This document shows positions 8,476 to 51,161 of a stretch of 64,000 nucleotides of DNA, piece by piece. The first letter of the stretch is position 1, and each line of letters starts with the position of its first letter. A program made the translations under genes and the position numbers. This stretch comes from an uncultured bacterium (GTDB lineage Bacteria; Krumholzibacteriota; Krumholzibacteriia; WVZY01; JAKEHA01). The notes under the pieces are model-generated. The model searched no databases. It saw only the letters and a list, made by a program, of their open reading frames with translations, and was not told the DNA's origin. The DNA lies in assembly GCA_965371015.1 (NCBI GenBank), contig CBDUWU010000001.1:1368-65367 (forward strand), written 5' to 3'.

Positions 8476-9579
8476 TCAGGTTCCAGGTTGAATGTCAAGT
8501 CCCGTCAATTCGTCGAACAGCTTTTTGACCGGCCGCATACACTCCTGCCATTCCGCCCGGGTTTTTACCAGTTCCAGGTTGGCCCGGATCGCGCGTTCCC
8601 GGAGCGGGGTGTCTTTCCACGCCTCGATGATCGACAAGGCGAGCTGCATCGGTTGCCGGACCGGCACCAGTCGCCCGTTGACGCCGTCCTCGATCCACTC
8701 GCGGTTGGCGGGGATGTCGCTCACGATCGGAAACAAACCGCATGCCATCGCCTCGAGCAGCGATACCGACGTGGTATCGGACAGCGCTGTCGAGACGTAT
8801 ATATGGTGATCCTTCAGAAGCGCGGGCACCCGGTCGTGGTCGACGTTGCCCACGAATACGATCGCACGCCGGGCGATCGACCGTTCAGCGCACGCGGTCA
8901 GGTCCGCCCGCAGCTCTCCGTCTCCCGCAACGGTAAGCATCGCGTCGTGGAACGATTCGCGCACAGCGGAAAATGCATCGATTACCGTGGTTACACTGTA
9001 CACCGGGGCCAATTTGCGGTTACTGAGAATCCGCGGCCCCCTTTCCAGAAGATCGGTCCTCGGACCGAACTTGTCCAGGTCGACCCCGAACGGAAAAGTG
9101 ATCACGTTATCGGCCGGGACCCCCATCGCCACGATTTTTTCCGTCATCACGCGAGCGTCCGACGTGATGCGCGTCGCCCGGCGCAGGACGTGCCTGGTCC
9201 GGAAGCGGTGAAACGGGCTTTTTCCCGGATCGGTCATAATATCGCTGCCCCACGTGCTCATAACCCACGGCTTGCGTCCCGCGATCGCCGCGATCATGCC
9301 GTAGTTCGGCACAAAATGCGCGTTGATTACGTGCGGATCGAACCGGCGTATCATGTCCTTCACCGCCGGGACGGCGAGGAGATAGCGCACGAAATGCGGT
9401 AGAAAAACAGGTATGCGCAGGTGACGGATATGGCCGGGGTAGCGGTCCGGCCGCTCCAGGGAAAAAGACGCCACCTCGTACCCCGCGTCGATGAAGTACT
9501 CCGCCCAGCGCTGGAGGTGCACCTGGCGCGCGTCCCCCATCAAAAGCAGGCGCGGCTTATTAATCGCGGTCGACGGCAT
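8476..9579 (-). CDS. glycosyltransferase, GT4 (GT-B fold) family
   Basis: 367 aa; C-terminal EAMACGLFPIVSDIPANREWIEDGVNGRLV matches the GT4 EX7E sugar-donor motif region. Confidence 0.8.
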   Translation of the reverse strand: MPSTAINKPRLLLMGDARQVHLQRWAEYFIDAGYEVASFSLERPDRYPGHIRHLRIPVFLPHFVRYLLAVPAVKDMIRRFDPHVINAHFVPNYGMIAAIAGRKPWVMSTWGSDIMTDPGKSPFHRFRTRHVLRRATRITSDARVMTEKIVAMGVPADNVITFPFGVDLDKFGPRTDLLERGPRILSNRKLAPVYSVTTVIDAFSAVRESFHDAMLTVAGDGELRADLTACAERSIARRAIVFVGNVDHDRVPALLKDHHIYVSTALSDTTSVSLLEAMACGLFPIVSDIPANREWIEDGVNGRLVPVRQPMQLALSIIEAWKDTPLRERAIRANLELVKTRAEWQECMRPVKKLFDELTGLDIQPGT

Positions 9580-9678
9580 TACCGGATAGTGTATTGCGAG
9601 ATCACGCGTGTGTCAAAGATTCGTTGGGGAAGGGAGTTGTGATCGGAGGCGAAGCGGTGAAAATGCCCTTTACCGCGG

Positions 9679-9707
9679 TTGACACACGGGTACGCGGGGC
9701 GTAATCT
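9679..9707 (+). promoter_or_regulatory. candidate promoter TTGACA-17-TAATCT in the divergent intergenic region, oriented toward the lipoprotein gene
   Basis: TTGACA 9679-9684, 17-nt spacer, TAATCT 9702-9707; ~50 nt upstream of ATG 9756. Confidence 0.35.
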
Positions 9708-9755
9708 GGCCCTACGCGATCCGACCAGTACAGTACCCGGAAGGGAAGGTTTTTA

Positions 9756-28247: not shown

Positions 28248-30149
28248 GTGTGCGGGATCGCCGGTATCGTCGTTCGTGAGGGATCGGTCGAGCCCTACCT
28301 CGAAAACCTCGACGATGCGGCGGCGAGGTTCGTCCATCGGGGACCCGACCACGGAGGGCGGTTCGTCGGGGGGCGCGCCGCGCTGGCGCACCGCAGGCTG
28401 GCCATCATCGACACGTCGCCGGCGGGTAACCAGCCGATGTCGGACGAGTCGGGGCGTTACACGATCGTTTACAACGGCGAGTTGTACAATTTTCGCGAAC
28501 TGCGGAATCAGTTGGCCGGTGAGGGCGTTGTGTTCGGGTCGGATTCGGATTCGGAAGTAATGCTCAAGCTGTTCATCGCCCGGGGGGCGGCGGCGCTCGA
28601 CGACGCAAACGGATTTTTCGCGTTTGCCGTATTCGATTCTGAGCGCCAGTCGCTGTTCGTTGCCCGCGACAGGTTCGGGATCAAACCGCTCTACTACTGT
28701 TCCACCGACTACGGTTTTATATTCGCCTCGGAACTCAGGTCTTTGCTCGCGTTCCCCGTCGAACGGCGGATCGACGACGTTTCGCTCTACCAGTACCTTC
28801 AGCTGAGCTATATTCCGGCCCCGCACACGATACTGAAAAACGTAAACAAGCTCGAACCAGGGTGCTGGCTCGAAACCGATGGCTCGGTACCGGAAATCCG
28901 GCGATACTATAGGCTCCCGCGCGACGGCGCGGCGGCGGCCGGTCCCGCCGTCACGTCTTACGACGACGCCGTCGCCCGAGTGCGATCGACGCTCGACGAT
29001 GCCGTAGGCATGCGGCTCGTCTCCGACGTCCCGCTGGGTGCCTTTCTCAGCGGCGGTATCGACTCGACGGTGATCGCCGCGCTGGCCGCGCGGCACACCG
29101 ACCGCCTCAAGACCTTTTCGATCGGATTCAGGGATAACGAGTTTTACGACGAAACGCCCGACGCCCTCGCGGCGGCGCGCGCGATCGACACCGACCATAC
29201 CGCGTTCCGGTTGACTTCGCAGAACCTGTTCGACCACCTGTACGACACTCTCGATCATCTCGACGAACCGTTCGCCGACTCGTCGGCGCTGGCGGTCAAC
29301 ATCCTCTCGATGCGCACGAGGGAGCACGTCAAGGTGGCTCTGTCCGGCGACGGCGCAGACGAACTGCTCGGTGGCTACAACAAACACTACGCTGATTACC
29401 GTGCGCGCCGGGGCGGGGCCGCGGTCGCGCTCGTGAAGGCGCTTTCGCCGTTGTGGAGCTTTTTGCCCGCGTCGCGCGACTCCGTCTTTTCGAACCGTGT
29501 CCGGCAACTCCGCCGTTTTTCGCAATCGGCCGGGTTGCCCGCCGGACGCCGGTACTGGGAGTGGTGCAAATTCACGTCGGGGGAACAGGCGCTCCGGGTT
29601 ATGACGGGCGAATCCGCTGCGACCGGCATGGACTACCGTCGCCGCGTCGAAGCTGCCGTTGAGGGGATTCGCGACGACGGCACTCTCAACGACGTGTTCC
29701 GTGCCGACGTCAGTCTGGTGCTGGCGAACGACATGTTGCGAAAGGTCGACTCTATGTCGATGGCGAATAGTCTGGAAGTCCGGGTTCCTTACCTCGACCA
29801 CCGTTTCGTAGAGCTGTGTTTCTCGCTGCCCGCCGGGTACAAGATCGGCGCGGGAGTGCGCAAGAAGATATTACGCGACGCCTTCGCCTCGATCATTCCC
29901 GCCCGGGCACTCGAAAAACCGAAACACGGGTTCGAGGTACCTCTTCTGCACTGGTTCAGGACGGGTCTGCGGCCGTTGATCGAGGACGACCTGCTTTCCG
30001 ACGATTTCGTCGCCGGCCAGGGCGTATTTGACCCCGCCGGCGTGGCGGCCCTCAGAAAGAGGCTGTTTTCGGCCCGGCCTGGCGACGTCGCACCGTTGGT
30101 GTGGGCACTGGTCGTATTCCAGCACTGGTGGCGAAAGTACATGGATTGA
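28248..30149 (+). CDS. asnB: asparagine synthase (glutamine-hydrolysing)-type amidotransferase, as found in O-antigen/EPS loci
   Basis: MCGIAG N-terminal nucleophile, SGGIDS PP-loop; 633 aa. Confidence 0.8.
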   Translation: MCGIAGIVVREGSVEPYLENLDDAAARFVHRGPDHGGRFVGGRAALAHRRLAIIDTSPAGNQPMSDESGRYTIVYNGELYNFRELRNQLAGEGVVFGSDSDSEVMLKLFIARGAAALDDANGFFAFAVFDSERQSLFVARDRFGIKPLYYCSTDYGFIFASELRSLLAFPVERRIDDVSLYQYLQLSYIPAPHTILKNVNKLEPGCWLETDGSVPEIRRYYRLPRDGAAAAGPAVTSYDDAVARVRSTLDDAVGMRLVSDVPLGAFLSGGIDSTVIAALAARHTDRLKTFSIGFRDNEFYDETPDALAAARAIDTDHTAFRLTSQNLFDHLYDTLDHLDEPFADSSALAVNILSMRTREHVKVALSGDGADELLGGYNKHYADYRARRGGAAVALVKALSPLWSFLPASRDSVFSNRVRQLRRFSQSAGLPAGRRYWEWCKFTSGEQALRVMTGESAATGMDYRRRVEAAVEGIRDDGTLNDVFRADVSLVLANDMLRKVDSMSMANSLEVRVPYLDHRFVELCFSLPAGYKIGAGVRKKILRDAFASIIPARALEKPKHGFEVPLLHWFRTGLRPLIEDDLLSDDFVAGQGVFDPAGVAALRKRLFSARPGDVAPLVWALVVFQHWWRKYMD

Positions 30150-30239
30150 GGCCGGTTGTGGTCCGTGCCGCCTCCGGAGAGTGATTTATTTTCTTGTCTT
30201 ACCGGCTGTGTCTACATATCCTGAAACATCCTCTGACGA

Positions 30240-30260
30240 CGCGGGAATACCGCGGGAATA
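30240..30260 (+). repeat. tandem direct repeat CGCGGGAATA(c)CGCGGGAATA upstream of the phosphotransferase fusion gene
   Basis: two 10-bp units spaced by 1 nt, 26 nt upstream of the GTG start at 30286. Confidence 0.5.
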
Positions 30261-30285
30261 TTAATGAAACCGAGGGACTGACGAC

Positions 30286-33123
30286 GTGACCGCACTGGTT
30301 TGCTTTCTGATCGCTTTCGGAGTGTCGTATCTGGGCACCCTCGGGCTGCTGCGCATCCCCATGGTGAGGGGCTTTATCGACGTTCCCAACGAGCGAAGTT
30401 CGCACGAGGCGCCCAAATCCAGGATCGGCGGCGTTGCCATCGTGGTCTCGTTCTACGCGGCGCTCGTGTGGTTGTGGGTGTCACAACCGGAGACTCGGGT
30501 ATTTATGCCGCTGGCCGTCGGGTCCGCGATGCTGTTTCTCACCGGCCTGATCGATGACTGGCGCGGGCTCGGCGTAAAAATCAAGTTTGCCATGCAGATC
30601 GTCGCGGCGATTACGGTAGTGTCGTTCGGGGTCTCGATCGACCACATATACATACCGGCCGCCGGGAGCGTGGAACTGGGCTGGACCGGTATTCCGATCA
30701 CCGTTCTGTTCATCGTCGGAAGCATTAACTTCTACAACTTCATAGACGGTATCGACGGGCTGGCCGCGGGCAGCGCGTTTATCGCGGCGGGGTTTCTGGC
30801 GCTGATCTCCATGACGCTGGGGCACTCGGCACTCGCGCTGGTACTTGTCGCGGCAGCCGGCAGTTCCATCGGCTTTTTACAGTTCAATTTTCCCCCGTCA
30901 AAATTGTTCATGGGTGACAGCGGAAGCACATTTCTCGGCTTCTTTTTTGCGTATACCGCCGTCGCGGCCAACGGGCTGACGCCCGAGCTTCCGGTGTTCA
31001 TTCCGGTTCTGATCCTGTCGTCGCTCTACCTCGACGCGGGGTTGACCCTGTTCAACCGCCTGATCAAGCGTGAAAACATATTCAAAGCGCACCATACTCA
31101 CTATTACCAGAGGCTCCTCTCGCTCGGGTTGAATCACAAACAGGTCACGCTGCTCGAGTACCTGGTGCTCATCCTTCTTGGTGTAAGCGCTGTCGTTTAC
31201 TTCAAGGCGGGCGAGTATTTTCCCGTGTTTATAAGCGCGTGCTGGATCACGCTTTTTACGCTGGCCATTTTGAAGATCCGTGGCCTGGAACGCGGCGACA
31301 AGCTGTTCTGGGAAAAGCGCACTTTGTTCGTCATCGGCCTCGATCTGGTACTGATCACGGTGGCGTACCTGGGTGCGTATTTCATGAGGATGAATTTCCG
31401 CTTCACCGATCCGGAAGGCACGGCGGTTCTGCGCGCGCTTCCGATCGTGCTGATCGTTCGAAGCGCCGTGTTCCACAAACTGGGCTTGTACCGGAGCGTG
31501 TACAAGTACACGAGCACGGCGGACATCGTGCGAATACTCAAGGCGGTCACGATGGGGTCGGCCATCATTCTGACCACCGTTGTCCTGCTCTACCGTTTTG
31601 TCTCGTTTCCGAGAACGCTGTTCATAATCGAATTTTTTCTGCTGACGCTGCTCATCCTCGGGTCGAGATTCTCTTTCCGCCTGTTCCACGAGATCGGCAA
31701 GGAAGCGCACGGCGCCAACGTGAAGCGATACGGGATTGTCGGCGCTGGAGACTTCGGAGAACGGGTCGCGCGCGAGCTGCGTAACGACAGCACCCGGACG
31801 ACAGTGGTGTCCTGTTTTATCGACGACGCCCCGGGCAAGATCGGGATGACGCTGCACGGAGCGCCGATCGTGGGGCCGGTCGACACCCTGGAGGCGATCG
31901 TGGCGAAGTACAAACTGGACGCGATCGTCGTGGGAATCGCCCGTCTCGACCAATACAGGATGGAACAGATTGCCGGGGCTGCCCGGGCCGCGGGGGTGGC
32001 GCTGGAGGGCCGTCAGAGCTCGTTGAAAAAGGATCCCGTTCGACCGGACGAGTTGTTCGAGAAGCTCGCACACGGGATCGGAAGGACCCGCGCCTGCGAC
32101 GTGGGGACGCCGTCCCGCGTATTTTATCGCGGCAAACGTGTGCTGCTCACCGGCGGCGGCGGACCATCCGGCCCGGCGTTAGCCCGCAAGCTGTCTGAAC
32201 TCGGCGCGGTGGTAACCGTGCAGACCGATTCGCCTCACGACGCCAGCAGATTCAACGCGGACCTGCGGAAGGACGTGTTCGTCCACATGGGACCGCCGGT
32301 GGGACCCGAAGGCTGGAAGAGCCTCTTCGACTCCGCCCGGCCCGACGTGGTGTTCTACTGCCTTGCCCTCGAAGTGCCGGCCGACTCGTACTCGGAGTCC
32401 TTCCTGTGGCACGCTTCGGTTTCGACGACGGTGGACCTGATGTCCGCCGTTGCCGGCTCGAGCGTATCTTCACTCGTGATGGTTTCGAATCGTGGAGCTG
32501 GGGCGCAACGAACCGCCGCGGATGCGGCTGCGGTCGCCGAAGCCATATTGCTCAACGGTGTGCTCCCGGACACTGTCGTACCACAGGTGATCCGATTGCC
32601 CCGGGTACTGGATTCGGGCGATCTCCTCGACGTGTTCAACGCGTGGTCGGGCGCAGCGCCGGGCCCAGACACCGGATACGACGTGCTCGAGCCCGAAGCA
32701 GTGGCGGTCGTGCTTGACACCGCGGCTTCCGGCCCGGGTCGCGTCATTGTCGTGCCCCAGTGGAGCGGTTCGTTTTCGGCGGTGGACGCGGAATCGATCC
32801 TCAACGGCAGGCCGGGCCCCGGAAGGACGGATCAATGGGATCGCATCGATCGCAACGCAGGCCCGTTGTATCCGGCTGAAGCCATCGCGGGGCCCCCGAC
32901 ACCGGGTGCGATACGATCGGTCGCCGGGGTCGCCGTCGTGACCCCCCTCTGTCCCGCCGATGAAACCGTCGCGGCCGCCCTGGCCAGCGACCCGCCCGAC
33001 GCCACCGGGGACGAGCGGATCAGGTGGATGGAAGCGGCGACTGCGTCGCTGTATCGTGACTCGGCCTCCGGCGCTGATACCGCCCCTGAGGCGGACTCCA
33101 CCCGCGAGAAGGAGCGGTTGTGA
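30286..33123 (+). CDS. fusion protein: polyprenyl-phosphate sugar-1-phosphate transferase (WecA/MraY GT4 family) + CapD/WbpM-like membrane/Rossmann region with degenerate SDR domain + Ala/Pro-rich C-terminal tail
   Basis: aa 1-330 carry the MraY/WecA motifs DDWRGL, NFIDGIDGLA, MGDSGSTFLGF; aa 340-470 have four more TM helices followed by YGIVGAGDFGERVAREL, as in CapD/PglF; aa 560-760 contain VLLTGGGGPSGPALARKL but no clear Y-x3-K catalytic motif. Confidence 0.75.
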   Translation: MTALVCFLIAFGVSYLGTLGLLRIPMVRGFIDVPNERSSHEAPKSRIGGVAIVVSFYAALVWLWVSQPETRVFMPLAVGSAMLFLTGLIDDWRGLGVKIKFAMQIVAAITVVSFGVSIDHIYIPAAGSVELGWTGIPITVLFIVGSINFYNFIDGIDGLAAGSAFIAAGFLALISMTLGHSALALVLVAAAGSSIGFLQFNFPPSKLFMGDSGSTFLGFFFAYTAVAANGLTPELPVFIPVLILSSLYLDAGLTLFNRLIKRENIFKAHHTHYYQRLLSLGLNHKQVTLLEYLVLILLGVSAVVYFKAGEYFPVFISACWITLFTLAILKIRGLERGDKLFWEKRTLFVIGLDLVLITVAYLGAYFMRMNFRFTDPEGTAVLRALPIVLIVRSAVFHKLGLYRSVYKYTSTADIVRILKAVTMGSAIILTTVVLLYRFVSFPRTLFIIEFFLLTLLILGSRFSFRLFHEIGKEAHGANVKRYGIVGAGDFGERVARELRNDSTRTTVVSCFIDDAPGKIGMTLHGAPIVGPVDTLEAIVAKYKLDAIVVGIARLDQYRMEQIAGAARAAGVALEGRQSSLKKDPVRPDELFEKLAHGIGRTRACDVGTPSRVFYRGKRVLLTGGGGPSGPALARKLSELGAVVTVQTDSPHDASRFNADLRKDVFVHMGPPVGPEGWKSLFDSARPDVVFYCLALEVPADSYSESFLWHASVSTTVDLMSAVAGSSVSSLVMVSNRGAGAQRTAADAAAVAEAILLNGVLPDTVVPQVIRLPRVLDSGDLLDVFNAWSGAAPGPDTGYDVLEPEAVAVVLDTAASGPGRVIVVPQWSGSFSAVDAESILNGRPGPGRTDQWDRIDRNAGPLYPAEAIAGPPTPGAIRSVAGVAVVTPLCPADETVAAALASDPPDATGDERIRWMEAATASLYRDSASGADTAPEADSTREKERL

Positions 33124-34013
33124 AACAGTTCTTCTTTGTACTTCAGTCGATGCGGCCCGGCCAGTGGACCAAAAACCTCGTGGTGTTTGCCGGACTCGTC
33201 TTCTCGCAAAACCTTTTTGATCGCCAGCTCGCCGCCAAGAGCGTCGAAGCTTTTGTCGTGTTCTGCCTGTTGTCGGGGATGATCTATCTCGTCAACGACA
33301 TAGCCGATATCGAGCGTGACAAGCTCCACGCCCGCAAGAAGCACCGTGCGCTGCCCTCCGGGCGCCTCAAACTATCGACGGCGGTGGTTGCGTCGATCGT
33401 CGGAACACTGGCCGGCCTCTATCTCGCCTGGCTGGTTGGGCGCGAGTTTTTTGTCGTCGCCGTCGTGTTCTTTGCGTTGAACATGCTATACTCGTTCGTC
33501 ATCAAGCGTATTGTGCTTCTCGACGTGATGAGCATTTCGATCAGTTTCATACTGCGCGCGATCGGGGGAGTGGAAGCCCTGCGCAGTCTGGAGCCGTCGA
33601 TCGAGATATCGCCTTGGCTCTTGATCTGCACCCTGTTCCTTTCCCTGTTTCTCGGGTTCTGCAAACGACGGCACGAGCTGGTCACCCTGTCCAACGCCCA
33701 CCAGCACCGGCGGTCTCTGCGGGAATATTCGCCGGCGCTGCTCGACCAACTCGTTGGAATCACCGCAGGCGGGTCAGTGCTCGCGTACGCGATATACACA
33801 ATCTGGCCCGACACCGTGGACAATTTCGGCTCGACGGACCTGGTTTATACAGTGCCGCTGGTTCTGCTCGGCGTCATGCGCTACCTTTACCTGGTCTACA
33901 CCCAGCAGAAGGGCGGAAGCCCCTCCGAGCTCCTCCTCCACGAGAAATTCCTGCTGGTCACGGTTGTCACGTGGGGCGCTCTGGTGATTGTGTTGTTGGG
34001 TGGATTCAGGTAA
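33120..34013 (+). CDS. UbiA-family prenyltransferase, decaprenyl-phosphate phosphoribosyltransferase (DPPR synthase)-like
   Basis: RPGQWTKNLVVFAGLVFS and YLVNDIADIERDKLHARKKHRALPSG resemble Rv3806c-type DPPR synthases (from memory); 8-9 TM helices. Confidence 0.7.
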   Translation: MKQFFFVLQSMRPGQWTKNLVVFAGLVFSQNLFDRQLAAKSVEAFVVFCLLSGMIYLVNDIADIERDKLHARKKHRALPSGRLKLSTAVVASIVGTLAGLYLAWLVGREFFVVAVVFFALNMLYSFVIKRIVLLDVMSISISFILRAIGGVEALRSLEPSIEISPWLLICTLFLSLFLGFCKRRHELVTLSNAHQHRRSLREYSPALLDQLVGITAGGSVLAYAIYTIWPDTVDNFGSTDLVYTVPLVLLGVMRYLYLVYTQQKGGSPSELLLHEKFLLVTVVTWGALVIVLLGGFR

Positions 34014-36564: not shown

Positions 36565-36606
36565 TAGGCACCGATCTCGGACGGGTGGTTGCCTATCTTT
36601 TTTTTT
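36565..36606 (+). terminator. rho-independent terminator after tRNA-Gln, before prs
   Basis: TAGGCA...TGCCTA stem enclosing GC-rich loop followed by T9. Confidence 0.55.
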
Positions 36607-36620
36607 CAGGAGTCGCACCG

Positions 36621-37553
36621 ATGGACGGATTGAAAATTATCTCCGGTAATGCGAACAGGCCGCTGGCGGAAAAGGTGGGCGAACACCTCGGTCTCGAAAT
36701 GTGTGACGTGACGCTGGATCGATTTGCCGACGGCGAGATCAGGTGCAAGATCAACGAGAACATCCGAGGTGTCGACGTGTTTATCGTCCAGTCGACACAA
36801 CCGCCGGCGGAGAACCTGATGGAGCTCCTCATCCTGATCGATGCGTGCTTTCTAGCGTCGGCGGAACGGATTACCGTGGTGATTCCTTACTACGGTTACG
36901 CCCGACAGGACCGCAAAGACCAGGCGCGGGTCCCCCTGACGGCCAAGCTGGTGGCCAAGCTGGTGGAGGTGGCGGGAACCAACCGCGTGTTGACGCTCGA
37001 CCTCCACAGCGCTCAGATCCAGGGATTTTTCAATATTCAGGCGGATAATCTTTTTGCGGCGCCCGTGATGCTTGAATATATTAGGTCTTTGCAGTCCGAC
37101 AACCTGATGATCGTTGCGCCCGATGTGGGAAGCACCAAGATGGTGCGGGCTTTCGCCAAGCGGCTCAACGTCGAGATGGCCGTGGTCGACAAGCGCCGCC
37201 ATGCGGTAGACCAGACCCAGGTCATGAACATCATCGGTGACGTCAGCGGCAAGGACGTTGTGATCCTCGACGATATGGTTTCCACGGCGGGGACGCTCGT
37301 GAACGGCGCCATAGCGATTGCCGAGGCCGGGGCCCGGTCTATCACGGCGTGCGCGACTCACCCCGTGTTTGCGGGAGAAGCGTGCAAGCGTATCATGGAG
37401 TCGCCTATCAAGGACGTCGTTGTCACCAACTCGGTGCCGTTCGACCGGATGATGCAGTGCCCCAAAGTCAAGGTTCTCGACGTTTCGGAGCTGATCGCGG
37501 AAGCAATCAAGAGAATTCATTACAACGAATCAGTCAGTACGTTATTTGTTTGA
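36621..37553 (+). CDS. prs: ribose-phosphate pyrophosphokinase
   Basis: MDGLKIISGNANRPLAEKV..., PRPP-binding motif VVILDDMVSTAGT. Confidence 0.9.
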   Translation: MDGLKIISGNANRPLAEKVGEHLGLEMCDVTLDRFADGEIRCKINENIRGVDVFIVQSTQPPAENLMELLILIDACFLASAERITVVIPYYGYARQDRKDQARVPLTAKLVAKLVEVAGTNRVLTLDLHSAQIQGFFNIQADNLFAAPVMLEYIRSLQSDNLMIVAPDVGSTKMVRAFAKRLNVEMAVVDKRRHAVDQTQVMNIIGDVSGKDVVILDDMVSTAGTLVNGAIAIAEAGARSITACATHPVFAGEACKRIMESPIKDVVVTNSVPFDRMMQCPKVKVLDVSELIAEAIKRIHYNESVSTLFV

Positions 37554-49616: not shown

Positions 49617-51161
49617 TTGACCGTTAGATTCGAAAGACGAGTCATGGAAAAGATATCTTCTTATAATATAGCAGTTTCTGTTGATACCTTAAGGGAAGGC
49701 TTTAATTCCGGCCAACTGGTGCCCGCGCTGCACGGGCCGCTGCAGTCTCTGCTGCCGCGGGTAACGCGCGCCGCTGCCGAAGCGCCGGCGTCCGTCTACC
49801 TGTTCTCCGCGGGAGATGGCGCCGAGGTCCGGGATCTGTTCGGATTTGCGCTTGTCGCCGCGCTGTCGCAGCAGATCCCGACGGCGTTGCTCGTCGATTG
49901 CGGATTTCTGGCGGTCGGCCTCAGCGGAGTCGTGCCGCAGAAAGACGCGCTCGGATTCCTCGACCTCCTGCTCTACGGGAGTTCGCTCGGCGTTATCACC
50001 CAGAAAACGAACGGCGGTGTCCACGTGGTGGGGGCGGGGTCCTTTCCGGTAACCAAGAATATGCCGTTCGTACTCAACGCTTTTGAGGAGGCGTCGCGCC
50101 GTCTCGTGTCGCAGTGTCGCTGCGCGGTCTTCTGCGGCCCCCTGTATAACGACGAAGGAGCACTCCACCCGCTGATCGGAGCCGTCGACGTACCGATTAT
50201 GGTGAGACTCGCCGGAACCGGGGGCTCCATCGTCGATCCTATCGAAGAGCAGATCTCCTCGAAGTGGGACTCGGAGTTGCTCAGCGTAAGAGTCACGCCC
50301 CGCGATGCCGCCGCCGCGCCGCCGCCAGCAACCGTGGCTACCGGAGTGGTCGACGAGAAACCCGTCGTCCCTGCGACTCCGGCGGCCGCGCCTCCATCGC
50401 AACATGAATTCGAGGAGATAGTCCCGCCCGCGCCACCGAGACCCGCCCGGGTCGAGACACCGAAACCCGCCCCGGCCCGGACACCGAAACCCGCCCCGGC
50501 CGAGGTTGCCCCGGTCGCTGATGTCGAATTCGAAGAGGAATCAACCGCGTCGCAGTACAAAGAGAAGAAATACTCATCGTTGGTTCCAAAAATCGCAACT
50601 GCTGTTGTCGCAACGGTTGTAGTCGTTTTCCTCGTGTGGTGGTTCAATGAGGAACGGACCGGCGGAGGCGGATCGGAACCTCCGCAGACGACAGGCTCGT
50701 CCGCTGTTTCGGATGTGGATGACGCCGGAGCCGAAACACCGACGGTGGTGGTGGTGGACAGCACGGTGGTGGACAGCACGGTGGTGGACGGCACGGCGGC
50801 GGTTGCCGTTGCCGCGGACACGACGGCCGCGCAGCCGGAACCGGAGCCGACCGGCGCGGCCGGCGCGGTCTCTTCCGACGACATACTCGTGATGGATGAC
50901 CTCGAAAACAACTGGGGTGGACAATACCTCATCCACATCAGTTCGTTCCGCGATTCGGGGAAAGCCCGAACCGAGGTCGGACAATTGACGTCCCGCGGAT
51001 TTTCGGTGTTCATCGTGTACCTGAATCTTGGTGCCAAAGGTTCGTGGTACCGCGTTTACGCCGGTCCCGTAGCGACACGCGAGGACGCGCGAAACATGAA
51101 AAAACTTCTGGACGATACGCCGGGGGTGCGTTTTACTCGCATATCGCAAATCGCGAATTAG
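49617..51161 (+). CDS. SPOR-domain protein with N-terminal degenerate ParA/MinD-like domain, proline-rich repeat linker and TM segment
   Basis: C-terminal YLIHISSFRDSGKARTEVGQLTSRGFSVFIVYLNLGAKGSWYRVYAGPVATREDARNMKKLLDD is SPOR-like; N-domain resembles ParA/MinD fold but with SAGDGAEV in place of Walker A; TM ATAVVATVVVVFLVWWF; start codon uncertain (49617 or 49644). Confidence 0.6.
   Translation: MTVRFERRVMEKISSYNIAVSVDTLREGFNSGQLVPALHGPLQSLLPRVTRAAAEAPASVYLFSAGDGAEVRDLFGFALVAALSQQIPTALLVDCGFLAVGLSGVVPQKDALGFLDLLLYGSSLGVITQKTNGGVHVVGAGSFPVTKNMPFVLNAFEEASRRLVSQCRCAVFCGPLYNDEGALHPLIGAVDVPIMVRLAGTGGSIVDPIEEQISSKWDSELLSVRVTPRDAAAAPPPATVATGVVDEKPVVPATPAAAPPSQHEFEEIVPPAPPRPARVETPKPAPARTPKPAPAEVAPVADVEFEEESTASQYKEKKYSSLVPKIATAVVATVVVVFLVWWFNEERTGGGGSEPPQTTGSSAVSDVDDAGAETPTVVVVDSTVVDSTVVDGTAAVAVAADTTAAQPEPEPTGAAGAVSSDDILVMDDLENNWGGQYLIHISSFRDSGKARTEVGQLTSRGFSVFIVYLNLGAKGSWYRVYAGPVATREDARNMKKLLDDTPGVRFTRISQIAN

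Follow-up and report, generated by a model that had tools for sequence, protein, structure and literature searches.

A polytopic sugar-1-phosphate transferase fused to a PglF/WbpM-type module with a degenerate dehydratase domain in an uncultured bacterial phylum

Introduction

Why would an enzyme predicted to initiate lipid-linked glycan synthesis carry, in the same polypeptide, a sugar-nucleotide dehydratase that seems to have lost its catalytic residues? This question is raised by a gene at positions 30286-33123 of a 64,000-nucleotide stretch of DNA (hereafter the window) from an uncultured bacterium of the Krumholzibacteriota (contig CBDUWU010000001.1, positions 1,368 to 65,367). Its 945-aa product joins a WecA/WbpL-like polyprenyl-phosphate sugar-1-phosphate transferase, a polytopic phosphoglycosyl transferase (PGT), to a membrane bundle, a Rossmann-like domain and an SDR-type domain (SDR, short-chain dehydrogenase/reductase), an arrangement first pointed out in a sequence-only reading of this DNA.

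The bundle and the Rossmann-like domain are known from PglF/WbpM dehydratases and from the large monotopic transferase WbaP. In WbaP the bundle and a PF13727-homologous domain make up the dimer interface; the isolated domain binds and is stabilised by UMP, and WbaP is inhibited by UMP with an IC50 of 4.1 uM (PMC10942596). The authors of that 2024 study proposed a feedback that protects the undecaprenyl-phosphate pool, described the same module for the dehydratase PglF, suggested like regulation for PglF-like dehydratases, and left open why this unrelated enzyme shares bundle and nucleotide-binding domain with large monotopic transferases; polytopic transferases are tabulated there as "PGT only" (PMC10942596).

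Results

One gene encodes the transferase and the module

The gene is a single uninterrupted open reading frame (ORF) of 945 codons on the forward strand, stop included in the coordinates, which begins with GTG. Its parts are the following.

30286..33123, + strand: coding sequence of the fusion protein, 945 aa, stop included; an ORF whose homologues align from residue 1
30286..31290, + strand: WecA/WbpL-like polyprenyl-phosphate sugar-1-phosphate transferase, a polytopic PGT with 11 transmembrane (TM) helices (residues 1-335)
31291..31710, + strand: four-helix transmembrane bundle, where conservation within the protein is highest, placed by the match to the N-terminal half of TIGR03025/TIGR03023 and by the structure model (residues 336-475)
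31711..32010, + strand: cytosolic Rossmann-like domain PF13727 (E 1e-9), the "DUF" of WbaP and PglF (residues 476-575)
32011..32130, + strand: poorly conserved linker, 23% mean identity, low pLDDT (the per-residue confidence of the model) at 577-583 (residues 576-615)
32131..33060, + strand: predicted pseudo-dehydratase, a PglF/WbpM-type dehydratase fold without the catalytic residues, which includes a supposed tail (residues 616-925)
33061..33120, + strand: true disordered tail, pLDDT 37, 10% identity (residues 926-945)

The sequence-only reading had taken this frame as one protein that physically couples the two halves, with the proviso that a stop codon might have been missed between two genes. 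There is no missed stop, full-length frames being conserved throughout the phylum. The same protein, together with near-identical 944-945-aa members of its 90% cluster, is on record in NCBI, ENA, JGI and Logan, and a search of 5.8 billion proteins returned 316 relatives, more than 100 of which are 900-980 aa long, 44-69% identical to the query and aligned over 95-100% of it. Hydropathy and the structure model agree on a membrane topology that runs continuously across the junction, 11 TM helices being followed by four, and the product is modelled as a 15-TM inner-membrane protein. The notion of an artefact of assembly or gene calling, in which two genes were joined through a missed stop or a frameshift, found nothing in its favour and faces a frame that is continuous both in independent assemblies and in those full-length relatives, with a topology consistent over the junction; we rejected it as having a negligible chance of being correct.

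The transferase half retains its catalytic motifs

Residues 75-227 matched PF00953 (Glycos_transf_4) with an E-value of 6e-40 and 137.3 bits against a cut-off of 27, and the three motifs that had led the sequence-only reading to call the transferase complete (DDWRGL, NFIDGIDGLA and MGDSGSTFLGF) were all present, in agreement with that call. In an alignment of 63 sequences, residues D90, D91, N148, N151, D154, G155, D157, G158, L159, D211, H269 and H272 were invariant, and these align with the DD (Mg2+), NxxNxxDGxDGL, MGDxGS and His-rich (HHxH) motifs of solved MraY structures. Hydropathy and the model place every catalytic motif, as well as the entire C-terminal half, on the K/R-rich cytosolic side, a topology that fits an 11-TM WecA-type enzyme with a cytosolic extension and resembles the 10-11 TM fold of solved MraY/GPT structures, whose motifs are likewise cytosolic. 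With all of its catalytic motifs invariant, the transferase is apparently intact. Enzymes of the WecA/WbpL type transfer a sugar-1-phosphate from a UDP-sugar to polyprenyl phosphate and release UMP.

The bundle and PF13727 domain are shared with two enzyme classes

The four helices that follow the transferase, all of them recovered in the structure model, have a mean identity of 70%. Pfam placed PF13727 (CoA_binding_3) at residues 399-563 (E 1e-9), across the four-TM and YGIVGAGDFG region that had been described as characteristic of CapD/PglF dehydratases. The region is indeed present, and the N-terminal membrane bundle followed by PF13727 is the arrangement of the PglF/WbpM/CapD class, but it is not specific to that class, as it is also found in WbaP-type transferases (PMC10942596). 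Accordingly, residues 352-572 matched only the N-terminal halves of the WbaP/WcaJ-type models TIGR03025 and TIGR03023 (72 bits against cut-offs of 296-411), and the window protein gave no Pfam match to the monotopic catalytic domain PF02397, so that it falls outside the class of large monotopic PGTs. Within the PF13727 domain, G486, C510, D513, G520, G525 and G530 were invariant in the 63-sequence alignment, as were the GxGxxG-like and DDD motifs.

The dehydratase-type domain has lost its active site

For the remainder of the protein, Pfam detected PF01370 only over the first 114 of its 240 positions (residues 619-734, E 2e-4). Of the two Pfam families proposed for parsing the protein, PF00953 was thus found, whereas PF02719 (Polysacc_synt_2) went undetected in the window protein even at E <= 1. 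The fold was recognizable by other means. In a Foldseek search with the whole model, the best match in the PDB was the PglF dehydratase 5BJU (E 4e-7, TM-score 0.59-0.61 on target), and the next-best structures were likewise UDP-GlcNAc 4,6-dehydratases (3PVZ, Mg534 and FlaA1). A profile of the C-terminal region built from 13 genomes also found PglF first, at E 9e-10, compared with 3.8e-5 for the best other SDR. Residues ~616-925 are therefore modelled as an extended-SDR dehydratase fold.

The signature T-D-K ... M-x3-K defines the dehydratases of the PglF/WbpM class. PglF departs from the canonical Tyr mechanism; its Thr395 and Asp396 take the C4-OH proton and its Lys397 acts in dehydration (PMC8987622). 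Taking the PglF catalytic residues from that review and from the PDB variant entries T395V, T395S, D396N/K397A and M405Y, we put 120 members of the family into one alignment with PglF and with three of the intact fusions described below. In the profile alignment, the equivalent of the S-T-D-K of PglF reads S-F-W-(G/D/E) in the family and S734-N735-R736-G737 in the window protein, and in the latter Ala stands in place of both the Met and the Lys of M-x3-K. None of the 120 members kept T/S-D-K, and none kept the lysine of Mx3K. The lack of Y-x3-K noticed in the sequence-only reading was confirmed for the SDR-like domain of the window protein and extends to the signature of its own class; the intact T-D/E-K triad that would have indicated an active dehydratase occurs in none of the 120 members.

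The losses reach beyond the catalytic residues. RFGNV has become RLPRV or similar and RYFM has become GYDL, GYDV or similar among the 120 members; the window protein reads RLPRVLDS-GDL for RFGNVLGSxGSV and GYDV for RYFM, and only the Arg (R770) is kept family-wide. His or Asn replaces the first Gly of TGxxGxxG in 86 of the 120 members, and Glu or Asp replaces the second in 58, the motif being intact (TGGGGPSG) in the window protein. A Trp has become newly fixed in the former active site, at the position equivalent to Asp396, in 101/120 members; the window protein, with Arg at this position (residue 736, window 32491-32493), is one of eight that have Arg. On the other hand, E752, R770, E802, E804 and E865 are invariant or nearly so at positions that are also conserved in the live enzymes. 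With T395, D396, K397 and K409 replaced and RFGNV and RYFM lost, dehydratase activity is not expected, and by its residues the domain is a pseudoenzyme, in which all catalytic and most cofactor and substrate motifs are gone.

The degenerate domain is maintained by selection

The sequence-only reading had set the last ~170 aa apart as an Ala/Pro/Asp-rich tail. The composition is as described (17% A, 10% D and 10% P in residues 776-945), but the stretch is the C-terminal third of the dehydratase fold, and only residues 926-945 look disordered. Residues 776-925 were modelled at mostly high confidence, low pLDDT being restricted to two short stretches of 841-880 and to 927-945. G859-P-L-Y-P-A-E865 aligns with the G-L-R-P-G-E-K (RPGEK) motif of intact fusions and T886-P-L-C-P890 with their P-T-x-H-P motif, and the last helices align too.

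Comparison of the window protein with a relative of 90% protein identity (dS ~0.3) gave dN/dS ratios of 0.11 for the transferase (1-335), 0.04 for the four-helix bundle (336-475), 0.23 for the PF13727 domain (476-575), 0.40 for the linker (576-615), 0.19 for the SDR-like domain (616-840), 0.14 for the C-terminal part (841-925) and 0.84 for the last 20 residues (926-945). The low values across residues 616-925 imply that the dead domain is maintained by selection. The confident model, the RPGEK/PT.HP alignment and the ratio of 0.14 for 841-925 led us to reject a low-complexity tail, and only the last ~20 residues look like a disordered, neutral-like one.

The degenerate fusion belongs to a conserved locus of one phylum

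Wherever the source gave an organism name for the >100 full-length relatives, it was Candidatus Krumholzibacteriota or Latescibacteria/Latescibacterota, and a scan of one genome per species found full-length copies in that lineage alone (L001-L013). The same parts in the same order also make up the ~830-aa proteins of a second clade that has diverged further (L017-L023, among them a UBP1 genome); these keep the C-terminus, though without any Pfam match there.

Gene order was kept in all 23 loci as far as the contigs reach. Upstream of the fusion lie genes for alanyl-tRNA synthetase, a Wza-type exporter, a long-form RmlA, a GT1 glycosyltransferase, an SDR epimerase/reductase and, variably, an AsnB-type amidotransferase; downstream lie a UbiA-family gene, DUF362, IspE and phosphoribosyl pyrophosphate (PRPP) synthetase. 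The outer flanks are housekeeping genes (DnaX, RecR, RecA and RecX upstream; L25, Pth and SMC downstream). The locus has the look of a core one and not of a variable serotype island, and the fusion protein is probably a core envelope enzyme of this uncultured phylum. The gene next to the fusion is the following.

33120..34013, + strand: polyprenyl-phosphate phosphoribosyltransferase (UbiA family), whose GTG start overlaps the TGA stop of the fusion gene

Its product scored 258.6 bits against a cut-off of 234 with NCBIfam NF008977 (decaprenyl-phosphate phosphoribosyltransferase), and the gene follows the fusion in all 18 of the 23 loci that have DNA past the fusion gene. This arrangement suggests that two enzymes acting on polyprenyl phosphate work in one pathway here, which loosely recalls mycobacterial arabinogalactan priming.

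Some further features of the neighbourhood were recorded. The gene for PRPP synthetase, the maker of the phosphoribosyltransferase substrate, lies 2.5 kb downstream (36585-37553), and the order fusion, phosphoribosyltransferase, (DUF362), IspE, PRPP synthetase is found in all related loci that reach that far. The AsnB-type amidotransferase of the window (28248-30149, + strand) scores well below the cut-off for XrtA/PEP-CTERM amidotransferases and passes the general asparagine synthase model; such a gene stands beside the fusion only in some related loci, the SDR epimerase/reductase gene abutting the fusion elsewhere. In the ~830-aa clade (L017, L019 and L021-L023) a gap of ~1.2-1.5 kb separates the fusion from the phosphoribosyltransferase gene, and in L019 this gap holds a ~340-aa ORF without Pfam match (8710-9735).

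Intact fusions and short forms occur in other phyla

The scan based on sequence patterns found, outside the phylum, only stand-alone ~340-aa transferases and one GT4-GT1 fusion from Phycisphaera, which suggested a phylum-restricted fusion. This idea was rejected when a profile of 63 sequences was searched against 1.84 billion representative proteins and found fusions in other phyla. The intact fusions are 930-1010 aa long and match profile positions ~5-840 in one stretch; all eight that were scanned contain PF00953, PF13727 and PF02719, the last with E-values of 1e-100 to 1e-120 in six of them. STDKA, MGxxKR and RFGNVLGSxGSV are kept in ~23 of 34 long representatives, most of which also keep RYFM, and ~10 long representatives from other lineages have degenerated differently (STNKA, STSKA, SSIKA and others). 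More than 80 short proteins of 540-780 aa (the ~600-aa forms) consist of transferase, bundle and PF13727 with no SDR domain.

Where relatives of an intact fusion carry names, these are from Acidobacteriota and Chloroflexota (Anaerolineae, Ardenticatenaceae), in which such fusions are common, so that the search for the same fusion proposed in the sequence-only reading did find it, with a live dehydratase. NCBI labels these relatives "polysaccharide biosynthesis protein", and one intact fusion heads a cluster of GT2, Wzy_C, GT1, epimerase and GT2 genes. The fusion as such is already visible in databases through automatic annotation; in the literature we found no paper that describes a WbpL/WbpM fusion, a polytopic PGT fusion, or a fusion of WecA with PF13727 or of PF00953 with PF02719. 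Elsewhere this class of fusion has a live dehydratase, and the window protein is its degenerate variant, found phylum-wide.

Other architectures came up in the same searches. Six of the short forms, inspected from P0151-P0160 and ~80 others, read NAFNLIDNMDGL, in which the DG.DG motif has Asn where Gly would stand. The Phycisphaera sp. protein (L027, 6001-8754) joins a PF00953 transferase to a GT1-family glycosyltransferase in 918 aa. The homology list of the intact fusion P0141 also includes PF00953 fused to DUF218 (PF02698), methyltransferase, UDP-glucose dehydrogenase, heparinase II/III-like and DegT aminotransferase domains, and two metagenomic proteins of ~1225 aa (P0316 and P0328) combine PF00953, PF02397, PF13727 and an intact PF02719 in one chain, bringing both PGT superfamilies together.

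A conserved promoter-like pair precedes a strain-specific repeat

Upstream of the fusion gene the following elements were located.

30194..30199, + strand: -35-like hexamer TTGTCT, invariant in the alignment with L081 and L082
30217..30222, + strand: -10-like hexamer TATCCT, 17 nt downstream of the -35-like hexamer
30240..30260, + strand: CGCGGGAATA-C-CGCGGGAATA, an 11-bp tandem duplication specific to this strain, within the predicted 5' leader (copies at 30240-30249 and 30251-30260)
30272..30277, + strand: Shine-Dalgarno-like GAGGGA, a sequence reading, kept in L081; it ends 8 nt before the GTG start of the fusion gene

The -10 region, CATATCCTG, shows no difference between the window, L081 (90% protein identity) and L082 (a 67% relative), and transcription is predicted to start near 30229. 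A TTGTC-N17-TATCCT pair (TATCAT in the second clade) lies 43-128 nt upstream of the fusion gene phylum-wide, often after an A/T-rich GATAAAT (L001-L023, L081 and L082). The broader pattern TTG(T/C/A)(C/G/T)-N16-20-TA(T/G)NNT occurs within 140 nt upstream in 18/21 loci, compared with 2.5% of random 140-nt windows, a contrast that is somewhat inflated by the post hoc derivation of the pattern from the same loci. A consensus promoter scan found nothing upstream, and the conserved pair matches the consensus at only 8/12 positions. The leader gave no Rfam match and no significant RNA fold (z -0.26).

The tandem copies of CGCGGGAATA had been proposed as an operator for a response regulator or another direct-repeat-binding factor controlling the fusion gene. 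The copies are real: they are exact, have an 11-nt period, and stand as two 10-mers one helical turn apart between promoter and start codon. Such repeats are rare by chance, this one being one of three short tandem duplications in the 64 kb, and composition-matched shuffles gave none in 15/20 trials. The comparison with relatives speaks against an operator. L081 has a single copy in otherwise near-identical flanks, and neither L082 nor any of 20 other loci has the motif upstream of the gene. The window holds no further exact copy, and its 12 copies with one mismatch (6.1 expected) are merely about twice chance, a number reached in 4/100 shuffles; no regulator gene is adjacent. Because the 90%-identical relative has exactly one copy, the second is taken as a recent 11-bp duplication, and the repeat is best read as the product of slippage. 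An operator, rejected on the grounds that the repeat is not conserved in orthologous promoters and lies downstream of the conserved one, thus appears very improbable. The other two tandem duplications (>=10 exact bases) lie within the PRPP synthetase gene at 36941 (period 12 nt, GGCCAAGCTG) and within the SPOR-domain gene at 50750 (period 15 nt, GGTGGTGGAC).

Discussion

The sequence-only reading was right about the ORF, the motifs and the repeat copies, and its ideas of a fusion and of catalytic loss have held; the Ala/Pro tail, the CapD/PglF specificity of the membrane and Rossmann region, and the operator have not. The reading that we favor, and consider somewhat better than an even bet, is that the protein is an initiating transferase joined to a complete PglF/WbpM-type module with a dead dehydratase, and that the retained module dimerises and, as we infer, senses UMP. 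The transferase would start a lipid-linked glycan in a conserved pathway for envelope or exopolysaccharide; the genes around it are those for Wza, RmlA, the GT1 glycosyltransferase, the SDR epimerase/reductase and the polyprenyl-phosphate phosphoribosyltransferase. Bundle and PF13727 would act as reported for WbaP, holding a dimer and sensing UMP; since a polytopic transferase also releases UMP, the feedback logic of WbaP carries over, and the UMP sensed would be the by-product of the transferase itself, throttling how much polyprenyl phosphate is used. As for the dead dehydratase domain, it would have been retained as a partner of bundle and PF13727 that either has a structural part or binds a ligand, perhaps a nucleotide or UDP-sugar.

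As for its origin, WbpL-type and WbpM-type proteins serve one pathway in Pseudomonas, and this, together with the live fusions in other phyla, leads us to view the window protein as a descendant of a live-dehydratase fusion, or as a parallel one, in which dehydration was presumably given up and the module kept.

Several observations weigh against this reading. The best NCBIfam model for the transferase half, WecA (TIGR02380), scored 102 bits, below its equivalog cut-off of 326, which places the protein outside WecA proper. The bundle and PF13727 region is ~29-30% identical to intact fusions and to stand-alone PglF-like dehydratases alike, and in per-domain BLAST the transferase domain is equally close to stand-alone and fused enzymes, a comparison that does not separate descent from an intact fusion from an independent fusion. 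UMP binding by this PF13727 domain would be an extrapolation from one protein of the other transferase superfamily. The packing of the domains is uncertain in the model (pTM 0.51), and any contact between dead domain and transferase is hypothetical. With TGGGGPSG kept, this particular member may bind NAD(P). For all members, the functions proposed are predictions from sequence and model.

The main alternative, which we regard as clearly the less probable though worth serious attention, is that the dehydratase-like domain serves purely as a docking or oligomerisation scaffold for soluble pathway enzymes (the SDR epimerase/reductase, the amidotransferase or the glycosyltransferase), with neither nucleotide nor feedback. 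It would account for a cofactor glycine motif that is not conserved in the family, for purifying selection on a domain without a recognisable ligand motif, for pathway genes that always adjoin the fusion, and for the second clade, which keeps a C-terminus that no Pfam model recognises. However, the invariant GxGxxG-like and DDD motifs of PF13727 argue for ligand binding somewhere in the module, and E752, R770, E802/E804 and E865 are (nearly) invariant at positions conserved in live enzymes. Residual catalysis is unlikely: a C-terminal domain that remains an enzyme with non-canonical residues and performs another reaction on a UDP-sugar or on the lipid-linked product would fit the intact TGGGGPSG of the window protein and the purifying selection, and PglF itself is already off the canonical Tyr mechanism (PMC8987622). 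Against it, the active-site positions hold no conserved acid or base (the family has F, W and G/D/E there, the window protein N, R and G), the lysine is missing in 120/120 members, RFGNVLGSxGSV and RYFM have been lost as nucleotide-sugar motifs, and about half of the family has Glu or Asp in the glycine motif.

A bolder extension of the favored reading of a dimerising, UMP-sensing module, about as doubtful in our estimate as the docking scaffold, would make bundle and PF13727 a portable control and dimerisation cassette, carried by both transferase superfamilies and by the dehydratase that feeds them, with the dead domain as an allosteric sensor of UDP-sugar, UMP or dinucleotide that gates a core envelope pathway. 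If true, this would explain why PglF-type dehydratases share the module of WbaP, and the sensor-gated, phylum-wide pathway would also use donors derived from polyprenyl-phospho-ribose.

Whichever role applies, polytopic transferases occur with a live dehydratase, with a dead one, or with bundle and domain alone, which makes a natural three-step series and contradicts the published listing of polytopic transferases as enzymes without accessory domains (PMC10942596). The series implies that selection acts mainly on bundle and PF13727 and that what the module belongs with is the transferase step. It bears on the open question of why dehydratases and transferases share this module, and it offers natural constructs for the study of UMP feedback and dimerisation.

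Among known systems, the NmrA-like non-catalytic SDR-fold proteins show no specific sequence relationship to the window domain, and dinucleotide binding, their defining feature, is doubtful for most of the window family. WbaP-type large monotopic PGTs share bundle and PF13727 with the window protein, but their unrelated monotopic catalytic fold (PF02397) lies C-terminal to the module, whereas the polytopic PF00953 of the window protein lies N-terminal to it. PglF of Campylobacter jejuni (5BJU), CapD/Cap5D and the Vibrio fischeri dehydratase 3PVZ have the same N-terminal bundle and PF13727; compared with PglF, the window protein has no detectable PF02719, has other residues at the equivalents of T395, D396, K397 and K409, and lacks RFGNV and RYFM.

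In WbpM of Pseudomonas aeruginosa, an SDR dehydratase domain comes after the same membrane region (PMC8987622). WbpL, a WecA-family transferase, and WbpM, a membrane UDP-GlcNAc 4,6-dehydratase, act in one O-antigen pathway, and each has its counterpart in one half of the window protein, in the same order. Unlike this pair, the window protein is one polypeptide, its WbpM-like half lacks TDK...Mx3K and the substrate motifs, and its locus is a conserved core and not a variable serotype cluster. In some wbp clusters an SDR epimerase/reductase and an AsnB-type amidotransferase are encoded nearby, as in the window. Finally, the intact GT4, PF13727 and PF02719 fusions (e.g. P0141 and P0133, ~980-1010 aa), which are ~29-38% identical to the window protein and, unlike it, keep TGAGGSIG, STDKA, MGxxKR, RFGNVLGSxGSV and RYFM, have an identical domain order, and beside them the window protein stands as a useful variant of an automatically annotated architecture rather than a new kind of system.

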